Source: Candidatus Adlerbacteria bacterium
GTDB lineage: Bacteria; Patescibacteriota; Minisyncoccia; Phycocordibacterales; SBAW01
Assembly: GCA_043784715.1 (NCBI GenBank)
Contig: JAYVXZ010000029.1
Coordinates: 1-24,331, forward strand
Direction: 5' to 3'
DNA length: 24,331 nt
The position numbers were made by a program, and so were the translations under genes. The number at the start of each line of letters is the position of its first letter. Position 1 is the first letter of the stretch. Shown one piece after another: positions 579-20,800 of the stretch. The notes below the pieces were generated by a model. It worked only from the letters and a program-made list of their open reading frames with translations, did no database searches and was not told where the DNA came from.

Positions 579-2615
579 ATGCTCATTTCCCGAAACTGGC
601 TACAGACTTTTTTTTGTGATGATCTACCCGGTGCAGAGGAGTTGGAGCATGCGCTCATGTTCCATGCCTTCGAAATAGACGGTATCGAACAAAAAGGAAG
701 TGATTATATTTTAGATGTAAAAATAACGCCTAATCGCGGCCACGACTGCTTGAGTCATGCAGGTATTGCGAAGGAGATTTCGGCAATACTCAAACTTCCA
801 CTAAAATCCAACCCGTACGCAGCAACTGCTTCAGAAGATACTTTAGTAGCGTTAAGAACGGTCCCAGCGGATAAAGTATCTTCTGAAGCGGGGGCCGTGT
901 CTGATTTGGTGGGGACGGACGAAACATTTAATTTCTCCGCTGCAGGACATCAAGGGGACGCTGCGAAATCAAATGTTTCGTCCGTCCCTACTGCGGATGT
1001 TGTAGTGTCTATCGATACAGACCTTTGTTCGCGTTACGTTGCAGCGCATATTAAAGGTATTAAAGTTGGGCCTTCGCCGGATTGGCTCCGCGAGCATCTG
1101 GAGTCCGTGGGCCAGCGCTCTATTAACAATGTGGTGGACGCGACGAATTACATCATGTTCCACTTGGGTCAGCCGCTCCATGCTTTTGATGCAAGTAAAC
1201 TTGTTCAAAAAGAAGGAAAGTATGCTGTCTCGGTCCGTCCAGCGAAAGTTAGCGAGAAGATGCTTGCGCTGGATGAAAAAGAGTATGCACTCAATGAATC
1301 TATGCTGGTGATAGCTGACGCAAACGCCGACCGTGCAATAGGTATCGCGGGGGTTAAAGGCGGCATGCCGGCGGGGATAACCGAGGCAACAACGGACATC
1401 ATCATAGAGTCCGCAAATTTCGACGGCGTCTCGACGCGAAAGACCGCACAGGCTTTAAAACTTCGCACTGACGCATCTGCGCGATTCGAGCAAGTCATTT
1501 CGCCCGAGCTTGCAATGTGTGGCATGCACGCTGTGGTAAATATGATCCTCGATTTGGCAGGTGGCGAATTGCAGGGGATTGTCGACGTGTACCCCAACCC
1601 GCAGGAAAAGAAAACGGCGTCGGTGACGGTTGATAAAATAAACAAAATGCTGGGTATAATGCTCACCGGTGCGGAGGTTGCCAACGTGTTCCAGCGACTC
1701 GGGTTTGCCTACAAAGAGGTAGGCGGCATGTTCGAAGTTATGGTGCCCTTTGAAAGGCTCGACCTGGAGATAGCCGAAGACTTAGTGGAAGAGGTGGGGC
1801 GCATTGTTGGCTACGATCGCGTTTTGCCGATTGAGCTGCCGCCTTTGAACCAACCTATCGAAGTAAATAAGAACTTTTATTGGTCAGAGAAAATACGTGA
1901 GTTTTTGACTGTGCGAGGTTTTTCAGAAGTTTTTACTTCGGTATTTGCTGAAGAAGGCGAGCGTGTAGTGCTCAATAAAGTCGACGGCGTTAAGCCGCAC
2001 ATGCGCACCCAACTTGGACGAGGACTTATTAATGCGCTTACAAATAATAAACGCAACAAGGAATTTCTAGGTTTACAAAGAATACAGATATTTGAAATAG
2101 GAACAGTTTGGGTTAATGGAAAAGAAAAAATTACGCTAGGACTGGCGGTAGAAAATAAAAAAGGTGAAAAAAATGCAATTGGTACTCTTCTCGATCTTGA
2201 ACAGTCCTTAGGTGCTAATGTTTCCGAAAAAGATGGTGATCCTAGTATTCGTGAATGTTACCTAGATGATTTAACCCAAGGACTTCCTGAACCAAGTCAA
2301 TATAGCGATTTGCCGCTTTCACTCACTGAGCGCTATGAACTCTATTCAAAATATCCTTATATTGTCCGTGATGTGGCATTTTGGACTCCAATGGGAACTG
2401 ATGAAAAACACATCGAACAAACGATAAAAACTGAAGCGGGGGATTTATGCATCAAAATCTCGCGCTTTGACCGGTTCGATAAAGACGGCAAAATCTCACT
2501 CGCATACCGCCTCATCTTCCAATCCTTTGACCGCACGCTCGTCGAGACGGAAGTAAATACTCAAATGGAAAAAGTCTACGCGAAACTGAAGGCCGAAGGG
2601 TTCGAAATCCGCTAA
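579..2615 (+). CDS. pheT: Phenylalanine--tRNA ligase beta subunit (short type lacking the tRNA-binding OB domain), with a ~55-aa insertion
   Basis: Starts 2 nt after pheS. ITPNRGHDCLSH, INNVVDATNYIM..GQPLHAFD, LRTDASARFE, DLVEEVGRIVGY and C-terminal FDX-ACB (YPYIVRDVAF...SLAYRLIFQ) motifs. Confidence 0.97.
   Translation: MLISRNWLQTFFCDDLPGAEELEHALMFHAFEIDGIEQKGSDYILDVKITPNRGHDCLSHAGIAKEISAILKLPLKSNPYAATASEDTLVALRTVPADKVSSEAGAVSDLVGTDETFNFSAAGHQGDAAKSNVSSVPTADVVVSIDTDLCSRYVAAHIKGIKVGPSPDWLREHLESVGQRSINNVVDATNYIMFHLGQPLHAFDASKLVQKEGKYAVSVRPAKVSEKMLALDEKEYALNESMLVIADANADRAIGIAGVKGGMPAGITEATTDIIIESANFDGVSTRKTAQALKLRTDASARFEQVISPELAMCGMHAVVNMILDLAGGELQGIVDVYPNPQEKKTASVTVDKINKMLGIMLTGAEVANVFQRLGFAYKEVGGMFEVMVPFERLDLEIAEDLVEEVGRIVGYDRVLPIELPPLNQPIEVNKNFYWSEKIREFLTVRGFSEVFTSVFAEEGERVVLNKVDGVKPHMRTQLGRGLINALTNNKRNKEFLGLQRIQIFEIGTVWVNGKEKITLGLAVENKKGEKNAIGTLLDLEQSLGANVSEKDGDPSIRECYLDDLTQGLPEPSQYSDLPLSLTERYELYSKYPYIVRDVAFWTPMGTDEKHIEQTIKTEAGDLCIKISRFDRFDKDGKISLAYRLIFQSFDRTLVETEVNTQMEKVYAKLKAEGFEIR
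828..889. repeat. Perfect 18-bp inverted repeat inside pheT
   Basis: gcttcagaagatacttta (828-845) / taaagtatcttctgaagc (872-889), 26-nt loop. Confidence 0.95.
909..991. repeat. 21-bp inverted repeat (one G-T pair) inside pheT, stem extendable inward
   Basis: gtggggacggacgaaacattt (909-929) / aaatgtttcgtccgtccctac (971-991), then atttc/gaaat after one mismatch. Confidence 0.95.
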
Positions 2616-5042: not shown

Positions 5043-5066
5043 TTTTGAAAGAATACTGCCTTAATT

Positions 5067-5100
5067 AAAAACACCCACAGCCGAAGCTATGGGTGTTTTT
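5067..5100. terminator. Bidirectional terminator between convergent genes
   Basis: aaaaacacccacagc-cgaa-gctatgggtgttttt with A- and T-tracts on either side. Confidence 0.9.
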
Positions 5101-5116
5101 ATATTACAGGAAGTGT

Positions 5117-12085: not shown

Positions 12086-12116
12086 CAAAATCCCCACCAA
12101 CTCGGTGGGGATTTTG
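12086..12116. terminator. Terminator after C1
   Basis: caaaatccccacc-aactc-ggtggggattttg. Confidence 0.85.
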
Positions 12117-15972: not shown

Positions 15973-16039
15973 TGAGGTAAGTCCGACTTGCCTCAAAAAA
16001 AGTAACAAAAACTCCGTCACTTTTTGGCGGAGTTTTTGT
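15973..16039. terminator. Two adjacent terminator hairpins between C2 and the convergent thrS
   Basis: tgaggtaagt-ccg-acttgcctca + A7, and acaaaaactccgtca-ctttt-tggcggagtttttgt overlapping the thrS stop. Confidence 0.85.
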
Positions 16040-17804
16040 TTTGGAAGTATTTTTTATACTCTTCATATGTGCGGTTCTTAATTTCGTGGGCGAGTTTGAG
16101 AACTATTTCATCAATTGAAAGTTGGCCAATTTTTCCTTTGTCGCGGCTTTCGAGAGTTGCCGCATTACTAGCAACCTCTTGGTCGCCGATAATAATGGTG
16201 TAAGGAACTTTCTCGAGTTTTGATGCGCGGATTTTTTTACCAAGCGTCTCACTCGAAGTGTCCAGTACGGCGCGTATGTCTGCGTCTAGGAGTGTCTCAA
16301 AAACTTTAGTTGCGTATTCCTGATGGGCATCGGCAATAGGGAGTACTTTGACCTGCACGGGCGAGAGCCACGTAGGGAAGGCGCCAGCATAATGTTCGAT
16401 GAGTATGCCCATGAAGCGCTCAGTTGAGCCGAGCATTGCGCGGTGTATAACTACGGGCTGAGACTTGCCCCCTTGCGCGTCGGTGTATTCAAGTTCAAAG
16501 CGCTTCGGCAAGTTGAAATCAAGCTGAATGGTCGAAAGTTGCCAATCGCGGCCAAGCACGTCTTTAAATATAAAGTCGAGCTTAGGACCATAGAATGCTG
16601 CTTCGTCTTCCGCTTCGCTGAACCGCCATCCAGTCTTCGCGACGACGCTTCTTAGTGCGTTCTGTGCCATATCCCACACCGCATCATCGCCAAGATATTT
16701 CTCTTTATTTTTTGAATCTCTAAGAGAAATCCGAACCCAAAAGTCAGCAAAGCCAAAAGTTTTGTAGACCTCAGCAATCATAGTCGTCATAAGCGTTATC
16801 TCTTTTTCAATCTGGTCGGGCATGCAAAACACGTGACAGTCGTCCTGTGTCAACGAACGGACGCGAGTGAGGCCGGAGAGCTCGCCGGATTTTTCGTAGC
16901 GATAGTTAGTGGTTGTTGCAGTGTATCGGACAGGAAGTTCGCGATAGGAGTGTGGAAGTGTCTTGTATAGCATCATGAAGTGCGGACAATTCATTGGTTT
17001 AAGATAGTAATCGTCACCGTCAATGCGCATGGGTGTGAACATTGCATCGTACTTGTCGAGGTGGCCCGAAATTTCGTACAACTTTCCTTTTGTAATGTGC
17101 GGTATCCAAATGGGTACATACCCGGCACGTTCCTGTAGTTTGGTAATGTATTCTTCGATAGTGCGGCGTAACATCGCGCCCTTTGGATAAAAAAGTGGCA
17201 AGCCGGGGCCAATTTCATCAATGATGGTGTACAACTCAAGTTCTTTTCCAAGTTTACGATGGTCGCGCTTTTTCGCTTCTTCGCGCAGGGTAAGGTATTC
17301 GTCCAAGCCTTTTTTATTTTCAAATGCGAGGCCATAGATGCGGGTAAGCATCGGGTTCTTTTCGTCCCCGCGCCAGTAGGCACCCGCCATTCTTTCGAGC
17401 TTAAAGGACTCTGCTTTGATGTCTTTGTTGGGGCGCTCCGAGTGGGCGCCGCGGCATAGGTCGGTGAAACCACCGCAGATATAGAAAGTAATTTCCTCGC
17501 CGGCATTTTGTATGTCGTCGATGAGTTCGAGTTTGTATTCGTTGTCTTTAAAATACTCGCGCGCCTCGGCATGCGTGACGACCCTGTGGTCGAATTTTTC
17601 CCACGAGGGGAGCAACTCGCGCATCTTCGCCTCAATTGGTAAAAGAGCATCTTCGCCCGTGGGCTTCTCGATGCCGAAGTCGAAGTCATAATAAAACCCA
17701 TTTTCAATAGCTGGGCCAATGGTCGGCTTCGCCCCTGGGTACAATTCCTTAATTGCCGCCGCCAAAAGATGGGCGAGTGTGTGGCGTGAGTGCTCTGTAT
17801 TCAT
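16017..17804 (-). CDS. thrS: Threonine--tRNA ligase (short N-terminus, no TGS domain)
   Basis: RHTLAHLLAAA, GPAIENGFYYDF, DLCRGAH, RDHRKLGKEL, LKPMNCP, GLTRVRSLTQDD, AAFYGPKLD, HRAMLGSTERF. The start is 17804; the longer ORF overlaps dnaE. Confidence 0.97.
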   Translation of the reverse strand: MNTEHSRHTLAHLLAAAIKELYPGAKPTIGPAIENGFYYDFDFGIEKPTGEDALLPIEAKMRELLPSWEKFDHRVVTHAEAREYFKDNEYKLELIDDIQNAGEEITFYICGGFTDLCRGAHSERPNKDIKAESFKLERMAGAYWRGDEKNPMLTRIYGLAFENKKGLDEYLTLREEAKKRDHRKLGKELELYTIIDEIGPGLPLFYPKGAMLRRTIEEYITKLQERAGYVPIWIPHITKGKLYEISGHLDKYDAMFTPMRIDGDDYYLKPMNCPHFMMLYKTLPHSYRELPVRYTATTTNYRYEKSGELSGLTRVRSLTQDDCHVFCMPDQIEKEITLMTTMIAEVYKTFGFADFWVRISLRDSKNKEKYLGDDAVWDMAQNALRSVVAKTGWRFSEAEDEAAFYGPKLDFIFKDVLGRDWQLSTIQLDFNLPKRFELEYTDAQGGKSQPVVIHRAMLGSTERFMGILIEHYAGAFPTWLSPVQVKVLPIADAHQEYATKVFETLLDADIRAVLDTSSETLGKKIRASKLEKVPYTIIIGDQEVASNAATLESRDKGKIGQLSIDEIVLKLAHEIKNRTYEEYKKYFQNKNSAKK

Positions 17805-17814
17805 ATAATCGAGA

Positions 17815-20800
17815 TTACAACGCCTTGAGAGCATCTGCAACGATGGAGTATTCGCCGTTGCGGTTATTAAGTTTGCCTTTGAGCACGATACAGGACTCAA
17901 CGCGGATGATATCTTTGTGGGTCGCGTAGTCTTTTGGGAAGACGACTGCCTCGATAGAGCCGTCGAAGTCTGCAAGCTTGATAAAAGCCATTTGGTCACC
18001 CTTCTTGGTAAGTATCACGCGCACGTTCTCAATCATCCCGCCGGTGATGGTCACCATGCCCGGCTTCACGCGTGCCTTGAGTTGGCCGAGCGTCATGTTG
18101 CGCTTAGCTAGGCGCTCTTTAAATTTGTCCAACGGGTGTCCCGAGACGTATAACCCAAGCAGCTCCTTTTCCCATAAAAGCCGCTGGTCCATGGTCGCTT
18201 CCGGTGCGATAGGCAACAGTAAGTCGGCAGGCCCACTGTCGACGCCGGCAAAAAGAGAATCTTGTGAAGCGTCTTTACCCGCGTCGCGATGATACTGCAG
18301 CAACAACTCGATAGAGTGCTGCATAGTGCCGCGCTCGCCGAGCGAGTCGAGCGCCCCACATTGTATGAGCGCCTCCAACCCTTTTTTGTTGAGGCTTTGC
18401 CCCGACACGCGCGAAAGGAAGTCGGCGAGCGAAATAAAAGGACCGTTCAATTGTCGCTCAGCGATGATAGAGTCGGCTATGCCTGTGCCAAAGTTTTTAA
18501 TCGAATAGAGCCCAAAGCGAATCGCCGAGGAGGCAGGAACAAAAGTTTCCTGGACAAAATAGTCTGGCCCGCTTGGATGCAAAGTATCCCTGACAGGAGA
18601 CTCGAGGACTTTTTGGGAGGGAAACTTTTGTTCCTGCCCTGTCACGACAGTAAAGTCGCCAAAACTCTCATTAATGTCCGGCGAAAGGATAGGCACATTC
18701 ATGCGCTTACACTCGGCAACCATAATCGAAATTGTTTCGATGTCGCCCGACTCGGCGGTAAGTACGGCGGTCATGTACTCGACGGGGTAGTTGGCTTTGA
18801 GGTACGCGGTTTGGTAGGCGACACGGCCATAGCTCGCGGAGTGCGCCTTGTTGAAGCCGTATGCGGCGAACGGTTCTATCCACGCCCACACTTCGTGCGC
18901 TTTTTTTGGCGACCAGTTGGAATGGTGGATGCAGCCCTCGATAAACTTCTCTTTTTGCTTTGCCATTTCCTCGGGGATTTTTTTACCGACGGCTTTGCGG
19001 AACTTGTCGACTTCGCCCCAGGTGTATCCAGCAATTTGGTTGGCCATCATCAAGAGGTCATCTTGGTAGACGAGCACGCCGTAGGTTTGCTTAAGTATCG
19101 GCTCGATGGCCGGGTCGAGGTAGGAGATAAGAAAGGAGTTGTGCTTACGCTTAATGTAGTCGGGGATGAACTGCATAGGGCCCGGGCGGTAGAGCGCCAC
19201 CATAGCGTTGATGTCGTGAATGGTGGTGGGCTTGAGGTCGATGAGCCACTTGGTCATGCCGGCGCCGTTAAGCTGGAAGGTGCCTTCAGTCTCGCCGCGC
19301 GCCAGCATCTCGAAGGTTTTCTTGTCGTTCATGGGGATGTCTTCGATATCGACTTTAACGCCGAGAATTTTCTCGATGAGGCCGACCGCACTCGCGAGGA
19401 TGGTGAGGTTTCGGATACCAAGAAAGTCGAATTTGGTTAGGCCAACACCGTCTTCGCCGACAGAGTACATGTCGTACTGCGTGATTATCTTGCCGCCTTT
19501 GGGGTCGAGCTGGAGTGGCGCATATTCGACAAGCGGGTTTGGAGAAATAACCACACCTGCGGCATGGACGCCCACGTGGCGCGCGCAGCCCTCAATTTTT
19601 TTGCCGAGGTCGATTATTTCGCGCGTCTCTTCCTCGTTGTTGTACATCTTTGCGAGCTCAGTGTTTTCGGCCAACGCGCGGTCGAGCGTCATAGGGAAGC
19701 CTTGCTGGCCGAAAGGAATTTCTTTGGCTAAGCGGTCGCCCAGGCCGTATGGATAGCGAAGGGCGCGCGCCACGTCGCGGACGACACCGCGCGCGAGCAT
19801 GGTGCCAAAAGTGCCTATTTGCGCGACGTGGTCGGCGCCATATTTTTCGCGGGCATAGTTGATAACCTCTTCGCGCCTGTCGTCGGCGAAGTCCATGTCG
19901 ATGTCGGGGGCCGACGGGCGCTCCGGGTTGAGGAAGCGCTCGAAGGGGATCTTATATTCAAGCGGGTCAATTTTTGTTATTTGCAAAAGATAGGTGGTCA
20001 TCGAGCCGGCGACCGAACCGCGAATGTTGGAGTAGATATTATTTTCGCGCGAAAAGCGAATGAGGTCCTCCACTACCAGGAAATACATCGCGTACCCTTT
20101 GAAGGCAATAATGCCGAGTTCATAGTCGAGTCGCTCAAGCACTTCGGGTTTGCCCACAAGCTCGCGCGCATGCATGCCGACCATGCACAGCTCGCGCAAG
20201 ACGTCGTCGGCAGTTTTGCCGGGTGGAAGTGGGAAGGTAGGGAAGACGAATGTGCCGAGCACTAACTCGACAGTGCAGCGGTCGGAAATTTTTACAGAAT
20301 TTTCAAGTGCTTCCGGATAGAGCTCGAACAGCTCAGCCATTTCAGCCGCGCCGCGAAAGGCGTAGTCTTCTTCCATTGGATTTTCCTCGACAGCCTGAGG
20401 GTCTCCTATTTTGCGCAAGGTTTGCCACGCCAGACGGTCGTCGCGGTCTATATAGTATGTCTCTTGGCTCGCAACGAGCGGTATGTCGTGCTTCTTTGCG
20501 AACGCCGTTAGCACTTCGACCGTTTGCTCATGACCGTCGAGCTCTTCGTGCATCGAGAGTTCCAAAAATAAATTCTCTTTACCAAAAATACTCAAGTAGT
20601 CGCTCAGTGTGCGCTGTGCTTTTTCTTCGTCACGAGCGCGCAGCGCTGCCGGAATTTCGCCATGTAAACAGGGTACGACTGCAATTAATCCTGCTGCATG
20701 TTCGCGCAGCGTATCGCGCGTCATCGTGGCGCGACCCTCGTGCTCGGTCGTATAGGACTTGGTGACTAATTTCAAAAGGTTGCGATAGCCTGCGTCATTT

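Follow-up and report, generated by a model that had tools for sequence, protein, structure and literature searches.

A translated hairpin in dnaE of a Candidatus Adlerbacteria genome belongs to a family of palindromic elements with conserved cores and covarying arms

The DNA considered here is a stretch of 24,331 nucleotides from a Candidatus Adlerbacteria bacterium (contig JAYVXZ010000029.1 of assembly GCA_043784715.1), hereafter the window, and the subject of this report is a hairpin that lies in frame within its dnaE gene, which encodes the alpha subunit of DNA polymerase III. The genome to which the window belongs, G000, is a fragmented metagenome-assembled genome of 815,670 bases in 133 contigs with a GC content of 49%, and the source DNA is found in only two sequencing runs, both from one study. 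Genomes are designated below by G numbers (80 species genomes of one Candidatus Adlerbacteria genus; G242 lies outside the genus) and loci by L numbers. There is no closer strain of the species, the best DnaE relative being 77% identical (residues 740–900 searched).

The dnaE product, P0001, contains the PHP, polymerase core, finger, helix-hairpin-helix, and OB domains in that order (PF02811, PF07733, PF17657, PF14579, and PF01336 are recorded), and it matches PDB entries 2hpi (E 1.6e-40), 5lew, and 2hnh. The dnaE frame stays open across the hairpin, which adds residues ∼810–846 (37 aa) between the finger and helix-hairpin-helix domains. Aligned with Thermus aquaticus Pol III alpha (2hpi), P0001 matches as far as DFKVV-G884 and again from E886-ILFGL; its residues 810–846 have no counterpart. 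Mapped onto this structure, the insert replaces a turn of 2 residues, a fold-compatible site that has been shown for DnaE only. The ground state in 40 order-level relatives is DFTVV, 2–10 residues, and AIRFGL, in accord with the earlier note on this DNA, which had placed ∼36 extra residues between these two motifs at a short loop. Peptides of DnaE that span the insert include those around KVLESPVR and DTLHPSGPDYFVQETFVPASSAIR. In an AlphaFold model of residues 690–970 with 31 homologues, a poor model of weak support (mean predicted local distance difference test score, pLDDT, of 61.7), the strands DFTV and AIRF flank a coil with pLDDT < 50. The insert is probably a disordered surface loop of ∼37 aa, and there is no evidence that it has a function of its own. 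The coordinates of all features are collected in Table 1.

Table 1. Features of the window: the dnaE hairpin and its parts, the host gene, and the two pheT hairpins.
Feature	Position	Strand	Basis
Family A element, whole copy	18532..18638	+	R1 83.6 bits, E 1.8e-22; inverted repeat; fold z = -4.6
Outer stem, left arm GGCAGGAACAAAAGTTTCC, locus-specific	18532..18550	+	Perfect complement of 18620-18638
Internal-loop spacer, 5 nt, TGGAC	18551..18555	+	Opposite 18615-18619; alignment to R1
Conserved 5' core AAAATAGTCTGGCCCG	18556..18571	+	(Near-)invariant columns in 22- and 88-copy alignments
Apical hairpin GGAT-gcaaagt-ATCC, exchangeable module	18572..18593	+	Type goes with the genome; orthologous copies may differ in it
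Conserved 3' core CAGGAGACTCGAGGACTTTTT	18594..18614	+	Two departures from consensus CGGGAGACCCGAGGACTTTTT
Internal-loop spacer, 5 nt, GGGAG	18615..18619	+	Alignment to R1
Outer stem, right arm GGAAACTTTTGTTCCTGCC	18620..18638	+	Inverted-repeat search
Host gene dnaE (DNA polymerase III alpha), protein P0001	17815..21063	-	Translation, Pfam, PDB match
Family C element, pheT linker (second pheT hairpin)	907..993	+	R2 78.6 bits, E 2.2e-18
Diverged family C relative (first pheT hairpin; "family B")	817..900	-	R2 39.8 bits, E 2.3e-8, minus strand

The arms of the dnaE hairpin are perfectly complementary over 19 nt, lie 69 nt apart, and are 86% complementary if extended to 28 nt; the 107-nt hairpin with a 19-bp perfect outer stem described previously is thus present as stated. 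Its predicted RNA fold has an energy of −53.1 kcal/mol, compared with −33.9 ± 4.2 kcal/mol for dinucleotide shuffles, and none of 200 shuffles is as good. The hairpin is also spanned, with no difference, by Logan contigs from the study's second sediment sample, and it is therefore not an assembly fold-back.

A word search of G000 reveals recurrence on other contigs for the inner part of the hairpin but not for its outer arms. Of the 80 genus genomes, 39 contain the 15-mer AAATAGTCTGGCCCG with at most one mismatch, ∼100 times in all, compared with 2 occurrences of a reversed control pattern. Folding of 30 loci gives one shared architecture, designated family A. A copy-specific outer stem comes first and is followed by a small internal loop and then by AAAATAGTCTGGCCCG; after an apical hairpin that varies comes CGGGAGAyCCGAGGACTTTTT, and the second halves of the internal loop and outer stem close the element. 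The outer stem is locus-specific and 12–27 bp long, while the 16-nt 5' core and the 21-nt 3' core form a conserved helix with an asymmetric internal loop. The type of apical hairpin goes with the genome; that of the dnaE copy is unusual for the family, and two non-standard pairs are flagged in the 3' core of this copy in the cmsearch alignment. A small hairpin elsewhere in G000 (C62:5366-5384) matches the apical hairpin of the dnaE copy (window positions 18576-18594) at 18 of 19 letters (GATGCAAAGTATCaCTGAC; BLAST E 0.06).

Two alignments, A1 (22 copies) and A2 (88 copies fitted to the model), and a covariance model, R1, describe family A. At E up to 0.001, R1 gives ∼420 matches of 95–130 nt each in 67 of the 80 genus genomes (84%), some of them being both strands of one locus, with 0 to 17 per genome; 13 genomes have no match. 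Among 150 other genomes of the class, only one matches, and weakly: G242, of the same order and another family, has six matches of 33–48 bits (for example L128 and L130), which may represent a distant sister family. The exact core pattern is found in 36 metagenome contigs; a scan of 185,579 species genomes gives 38 stretches, confined to records named Adlerbacteria, Paceibacterota, Parcubacteria, or Patescibacteria or matching genus genomes; the DnaE homologues bear the same taxon names. No viral contig contains the exact core pattern, and phage was rejected as a vector for this reason. No Rfam identity emerged, as there is no match in the window at the gathering score and, even at E up to 1, three loci with strong copies give none. 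Literature searches likewise turned up no account of such elements for Adlerbacteria, Parcubacteria, or Patescibacteria. The earlier claim of a dispersed family of translated elements resembling the Rickettsia palindromic elements (RPEs) is borne out in this genome and across the genus. A truncated family A copy occurs at C34:1477-1497 of G000, where the 5' core and the peptide PSGPDYFLQK are kept in a 262-codon frame and the 3' core is unrecognizable.

The copies are translated together with genes that differ from one another. Of the 88 aligned copies, 68 fall within frames free of stops over at least 150 codons, 43 of them antisense and 25 sense to the A strand, by which we mean the element strand that bears AAAATAGTCTGGCCCG (in the dnaE copy, the + strand, antisense to dnaE). 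All six frames are used, giving unrelated peptides such as KKVLGSPV..GPDYF, RSSDLP..RARPF, EKIVWPE..GDPRTF, and ENSLAR..GRPEDFF. Three copies (L185, L190, L181) are read in the one frame for which the core TAG would be a stop, and all three have AAATGG (two) or AAAAAG (one) in place of AAATAG. The open frames and the replaced TAG indicate that the copies are translated and not spliced out; as both orientations also occur, intron-like removal at the RNA level was rejected.

The pairing of the arms is kept with high fidelity while their sequence changes. In A2, 98.2% of the structure cells hold a standard pair, and 545 cells are changed on both sides. The covariation score is 0.613, versus 0.16 for shuffles and ∼0.11 for slid partners, and double changes are seen in all 12 outer-stem pairs across the 88 copies. 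In arms that are drifting, pairing amounts to 96.6%, and the core contains an invariant U-G pair. At the ten variable outer pairs, read on the strand that bears AAATAGTCTGGCCCG, G.T or T.G occurs 40 times and A.C or C.A only 8 times (binomial p = 3e-6). This excess stays on the A strand whether the copy is sense to its host gene (8:3), antisense to it (23:4), or outside long open reading frames (9:1). These observations indicate that the structure is selected on the A strand and not in the host mRNA, and selection at the level of host mRNA was rejected accordingly. Replication-linked deamination would be expected to give the opposite excess.

Copies at orthologous positions, identified via their flanks, show how the parts of the element change with time. 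With flanks ∼84% identical, the arms are 70–75%, the cores 97%, and the apical part 76% identical; with flanks ∼75% identical, the corresponding values are 65–68%, 95%, and 68%. The arms thus drift at about the pace of the adjoining coding DNA or faster, yet they stay paired. The arms of the dnaE copies in G000 and G070 are ∼72% alike by eye (71% and 75% by the aligner) with changes that are compensated, which fits one old insertion. In the trio L239/L174/L260 (oriented coordinates 1119-, 727-, and 1720+), with flanks 85–91% identical, the arms are identical and the apical hairpin of L239 is different, a case that suggests exchange of the apical module between copies. Six paralogs in G070 have one apical type and different arms. 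Across the family, the arms share the consensus GGAAAAATTTCTC / GGGAATTTTTTCC.

The same sites have been used repeatedly. The DnaE turn that carries the hairpin in G000 holds family A copies in G021, G004, and G070 as well, a copy of a second family, family C, in G019 (L007), another hairpin with a 30-bp stem in G017 (L004), two hairpins in G016 (L005), and in eight species (L006, L008–L014) a stemless 20-residue remnant (..KAAALAGD..). At least ten species have elements in the PheT linker, which differ in kind and lie in either orientation. Thus tolerant loops such as the DnaE beta-turn and the PheT linker are hit repeatedly, by different elements in different species. Further, unclassified insertions are seen in the PheT linker (SKTWPSGLERSSG; LIRTLEPELGALKEG) at L068/L070 (G073, G076), L067/L086 (G056, G063), and L063 (G022), and the length of PheT within the genus varies from 592 to 781 residues.

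The window carries two further hairpins, both in pheT, and both belong to family C, in opposite orientations. The loop of the first recurs at C130:69-134 of G000. The core of the second, CCGCTGCAGG-N7-GGGGACGCTGC, recurs with a different perfect stem in every copy. The family C covariance model, R2 (alignment A3), finds the family in 24 of the 80 genus genomes and at ∼12 loci in G000, where nearly all of the ∼20 hairpins of families A and C lie inside long open reading frames. The covariation score of family C is 0.67 versus 0.185 for shuffles; its wobble counts (G.T 10, A.C 19) are too few for a reading.

The earlier note had joined the dnaE and pheT hairpins in a single genome-wide family. 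The wide distribution held for family A, while the union of the two loci did not: R2 gives the dnaE hairpin 13.9 bits, and R1 gives the pheT hairpins 8.6–12.7 bits, as it does terminator-like sequences. The likeness that had been seen between the dnaE loop and the pheT hairpin is at the level of chance, since the best local alignment of the dnaE hairpin with pheT positions 808-991 scores 17, compared with 16.0 ± 2.2 for dinucleotide shuffles, 332 of 1000 of which score as high. In the dnaE copy the matching letters fall in the apical part and in the pheT copy where loop and arm join, both of them regions that vary within the respective family, and the supposed resemblance to the second pheT arm reduces to A-run/T-run make-up. 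On the basis of the model scores and the shuffle test, a single family for both loci was rejected.

The A strand is placed unevenly with respect to replication. In G092, whose contig C1 spans 590 kb, cumulative GC skew indicates an origin at ∼500 kb and a terminus at ∼140 kb; of the 11 copies there, 10 have the A strand on the C-rich, lagging strand. For 49 copies from ten other genomes, each considered in a 20-kb window, the A strand is on the C-rich strand in 30 cases versus 12 where the skew is significant. Direct repeats of 3 nt flank 14 of 104 copies, compared with 4.5 expected; there are none of 4 nt, and the dnaE copy has none. The motif G[GAC]AG peaks ∼17–20 nt from the cores on both sides. 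The 3-nt repeats and these peaks could reflect a small target duplication or an asymmetric terminus.

Considering these results together, we think it probable, though well short of certain, that the dnaE hairpin goes back to an old insertion, since inherited vertically, of a palindromic element that is non-autonomous and defined by its structure, RPE-like selfish DNA that is restricted to one genus. Family A would spread via a single-stranded intermediate in which the A strand is folded, and a trans-acting protein would recognize the conserved internal loop rather than the termini. Insertions would persist only where the extra ∼36-aa peptide is harmless. The pairing of the arms might be upheld locus by locus through selection on the folded strand, or one arm might be copied from the other, and apical modules may be swapped between copies by conversion through the conserved cores.

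Several observations weigh against selfish spread of this kind. Recent movement, exact ends, and target duplication are putative; the one filled and empty pair, G008 and G076, has flanks ∼80% identical in an indel-rich region and is too imprecise to place the ends. Lasting upkeep of pairing at resident copies is not expected for decaying selfish DNA and would fit a host function equally well. When the local gene-strand majority is used as the reference, the A-strand bias is 18 versus 13 and is not cleanly separable from gene orientation; we regard the orientation bias as real but moderate and entangled with gene orientation. The wobble and covariation counts rest on a model-fitted alignment of related copies, which leans toward structure, although the effect is still large.

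The candidate mobilizers also speak against it, in that no mobilizing enzyme was found for family A in the searches made (Y1_Tnp, GIY-YIG, and the open reading frames of one copy pair). Y1_Tnp (PF01797) occurs in 51 of the 80 genomes, but neither G052 (9 copies) nor G094 (17 copies) has it; G048 likewise lacks it, and these three genomes hold 5–17 copies. The cognate IS200/IS605 or repetitive extragenic palindrome (REP)-type TnpA that had been proposed is therefore not supported. Small GIY-YIG genes, considered as another lead, are present in 79 of 80 genomes and are uninformative. An autonomous copy flanked by two hairpins was not found either: the pair at L291 sits in two adjacent host genes without a transposase, no systematic search of all loci having been made. 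The five Y1_Tnp (IS200/RAYT-like) genes of G000, at C129:817-1688, C104:97-125, C2:1978-2840, and C35:261-734, are a separate matter. Those on C129, C2, and C35 are flanked by short palindromes of their own, such as TGTCAAACAC-cga-GTGTTTGACA; these belong to separate REP-like systems with no relation to families A and C. With this and the lack of co-occurrence, an IS200/RAYT Y1 transposase was rejected as the mobilizer.

The alternative that survives best is a cis element that serves the host, in which the folded A strand, as single-stranded DNA at the fork or as a protein-bound site, aids replication, repair, or chromosome organization, the copies being under purifying selection and the coding regions merely tolerant. 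Such a role would account for cores that remain 95–97% identical in orthologous copies whose flanks are only 75–84% identical, for the pairing of 96.6% in drifting arms, for the orientation bias by GC skew (10 of 11, and 30 versus 12), and for the presence of the family in 84% of the species of the genus. We nevertheless judge it unlikely. The copy number ranges from 0 to 17, with 13 genomes that do without any copy, the positions are irregular, and the same protein loops hold elements of different families. It would be costly to have a needed site within essential open reading frames, in all six frames, and family A is limited to one genus.

We hold as quite unlikely a more far-reaching form of mobility, one so far undescribed, in which the internal loop is recognized instead of the ends and a folded single strand (single-stranded DNA, or RNA copied back) enters the nascent lagging strand at the replication fork through an enzyme outside the known transposase families. 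If this were true, the arms would need only to hold both ends together, and any arm sequence that pairs would serve.

It can also be asked if the A strand gives rise to small structured RNAs of one family, which would often be antisense in cis to the host gene and undergo compensatory evolution through G-U intermediates. The tolerance of G.T on the A strand, five times as frequent as that of A.C in any orientation to the host gene, is consistent with an RNA, as are the invariant U-G pair in the core and the 43 of 68 intragenic copies that are antisense. Single-stranded DNA, however, also tolerates G.T better than A.C, and antisense regulation makes no sense for the 25 sense copies. No conserved promoter or terminator is seen near the copies, there is no Rfam relative, and a run search gave no RNA run that contains this organism. 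We find an RNA family decidedly doubtful.

The possibility that the perfect arms are newly made from the target at each insertion, as a core joined to inverted flanking host DNA, or that they are hypermutated, is largely refuted, and we give it very little credence. It was suggested by the G070 paralogs, which are near-identical in their core and apical parts but have different arms, and by the G008/G076 comparison, in which 9 of 12 positions of the right arm are like those of the empty site. However, the family consensus of the arms makes them part of the element. The arms of orthologous copies are homologous and change stepwise, in some cases they are identical though the flanks are only 85–91% identical, and even among the G070 paralogs those of L152 and L168 are ∼75% alike by eye. 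Finally, a fold-back chimera of assembly and a selected protein module with an incidental DNA palindrome are both refuted: while the genome is fragmented and one contig end carries a 64-bp fold-back, the hairpin is spanned by an independent assembly from the second sample, homologous copies number in the hundreds across 67 genomes that were assembled independently, and the six frames encode unrelated peptides.

Under the reading we prefer, an old copy of a selfish insertion element, the closest known parallel in function is offered by the RPEs (RPE-1 to RPE-10; Ogata et al. 2000, 2002), dispersed hairpin repeats of ∼100–150 bp that lie in frame in housekeeping genes, are translated as an extra peptide at fold-compatible sites, and have no known mobilizer (PMC10969869). 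Family A shares with them a dispersed hairpin repeat of about this size in a small-genome bacterium, inserted in frame at tolerant sites of unrelated housekeeping genes. The likeness is a functional one, drawn from published descriptions. The host of family A, in contrast, belongs to the candidate phyla radiation (CPR) and not to the Alphaproteobacteria, only ∼37 nt of internal-loop core are conserved while the outer arms are locus-specific and covarying, and the use of six frames means that there is no single conserved peptide per family. The restriction of the core pattern to Adlerbacteria-genus records among the 185,579 genomes argues against shared descent with RPEs. For these, we know of no report of a wobble excess on one strand or of a bias relative to GC skew.

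REPs with Y1 HUH transposases (the REP/RAYT systems), intragenic REPs included (Di Nocera et al. 2013; PMC3733652), offer a second comparison. Family A is likewise a palindromic repeat that can sit inside open reading frames. REPs are recognized as a folded single strand, and such recognition is conceivable for family A; transposition of single-stranded DNA as in REP/RAYT would be expected to leave an orientation bias relative to replication. REPs, however, are 20–40 nt long with a GTAG or CGTC tag and a stem conserved within the genome, whereas family A elements are 105–120 nt long with stems that differ between copies, and the consensus of 88 copies has neither tag. Y1_Tnp genes do not track the copy number of family A.

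Mitochondrial genomes have mobile G+C-rich hairpin clusters and double-hairpin elements, small hairpins that enter coding regions in frame and persist there as additional loops. They are far shorter than family A, GC-rich, conserved in sequence throughout, and organellar, as family A is not. With MITEs, the miniature inverted-repeat transposable elements (PMC10969869), the family has in common that it is short, non-autonomous, and multi-copy, with inverted ends and a sometimes in-frame position in genes. The terminal inverted repeats of MITEs, however, are conserved and match a parent insertion sequence, whereas the arms of family A are its least conserved part (65–75% identical even between orthologs and different between paralogs) and the middle is conserved; nor did the searches made yield a parent insertion sequence for family A. 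What sets family A apart is the conservation of the internal loop, arms that are free to vary if paired, and one selected strand.

In-frame palindromic elements have been known mainly from Rickettsia and organelles, and the same phenomenon is now seen in CPR bacteria. The genus provides a natural series, with 80 species, ∼400 copies, and orthologous copies at graded distances. The conservation of the internal loop, the covarying arms, the G.T excess, and the replication-biased strand point to a single-stranded, structure-recognized intermediate. Because the elements add tens of residues to essential proteins (DnaE, PheRS), they help to explain lineage-specific protein insertions in CPR genomes. 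Annotators and protein modelers should expect such inserts, which are best masked when CPR housekeeping proteins are aligned.

Two minor features complete the description. The fold-back at a contig end of G000 is a 64-bp perfect inverted repeat with a 62-nt loop (C32:2324-2513) that ends exactly at the contig end, and it is either a fold-back assembly artefact or an insertion-sequence end. Within the window, short A-run/stem/T-run hairpins lie between genes at 5066-5101, 12086-12116, and 16004-16040; R1 and R2 give them 8–17 bits, the noise level for generic hairpins, and they are probably bidirectional intrinsic terminators.

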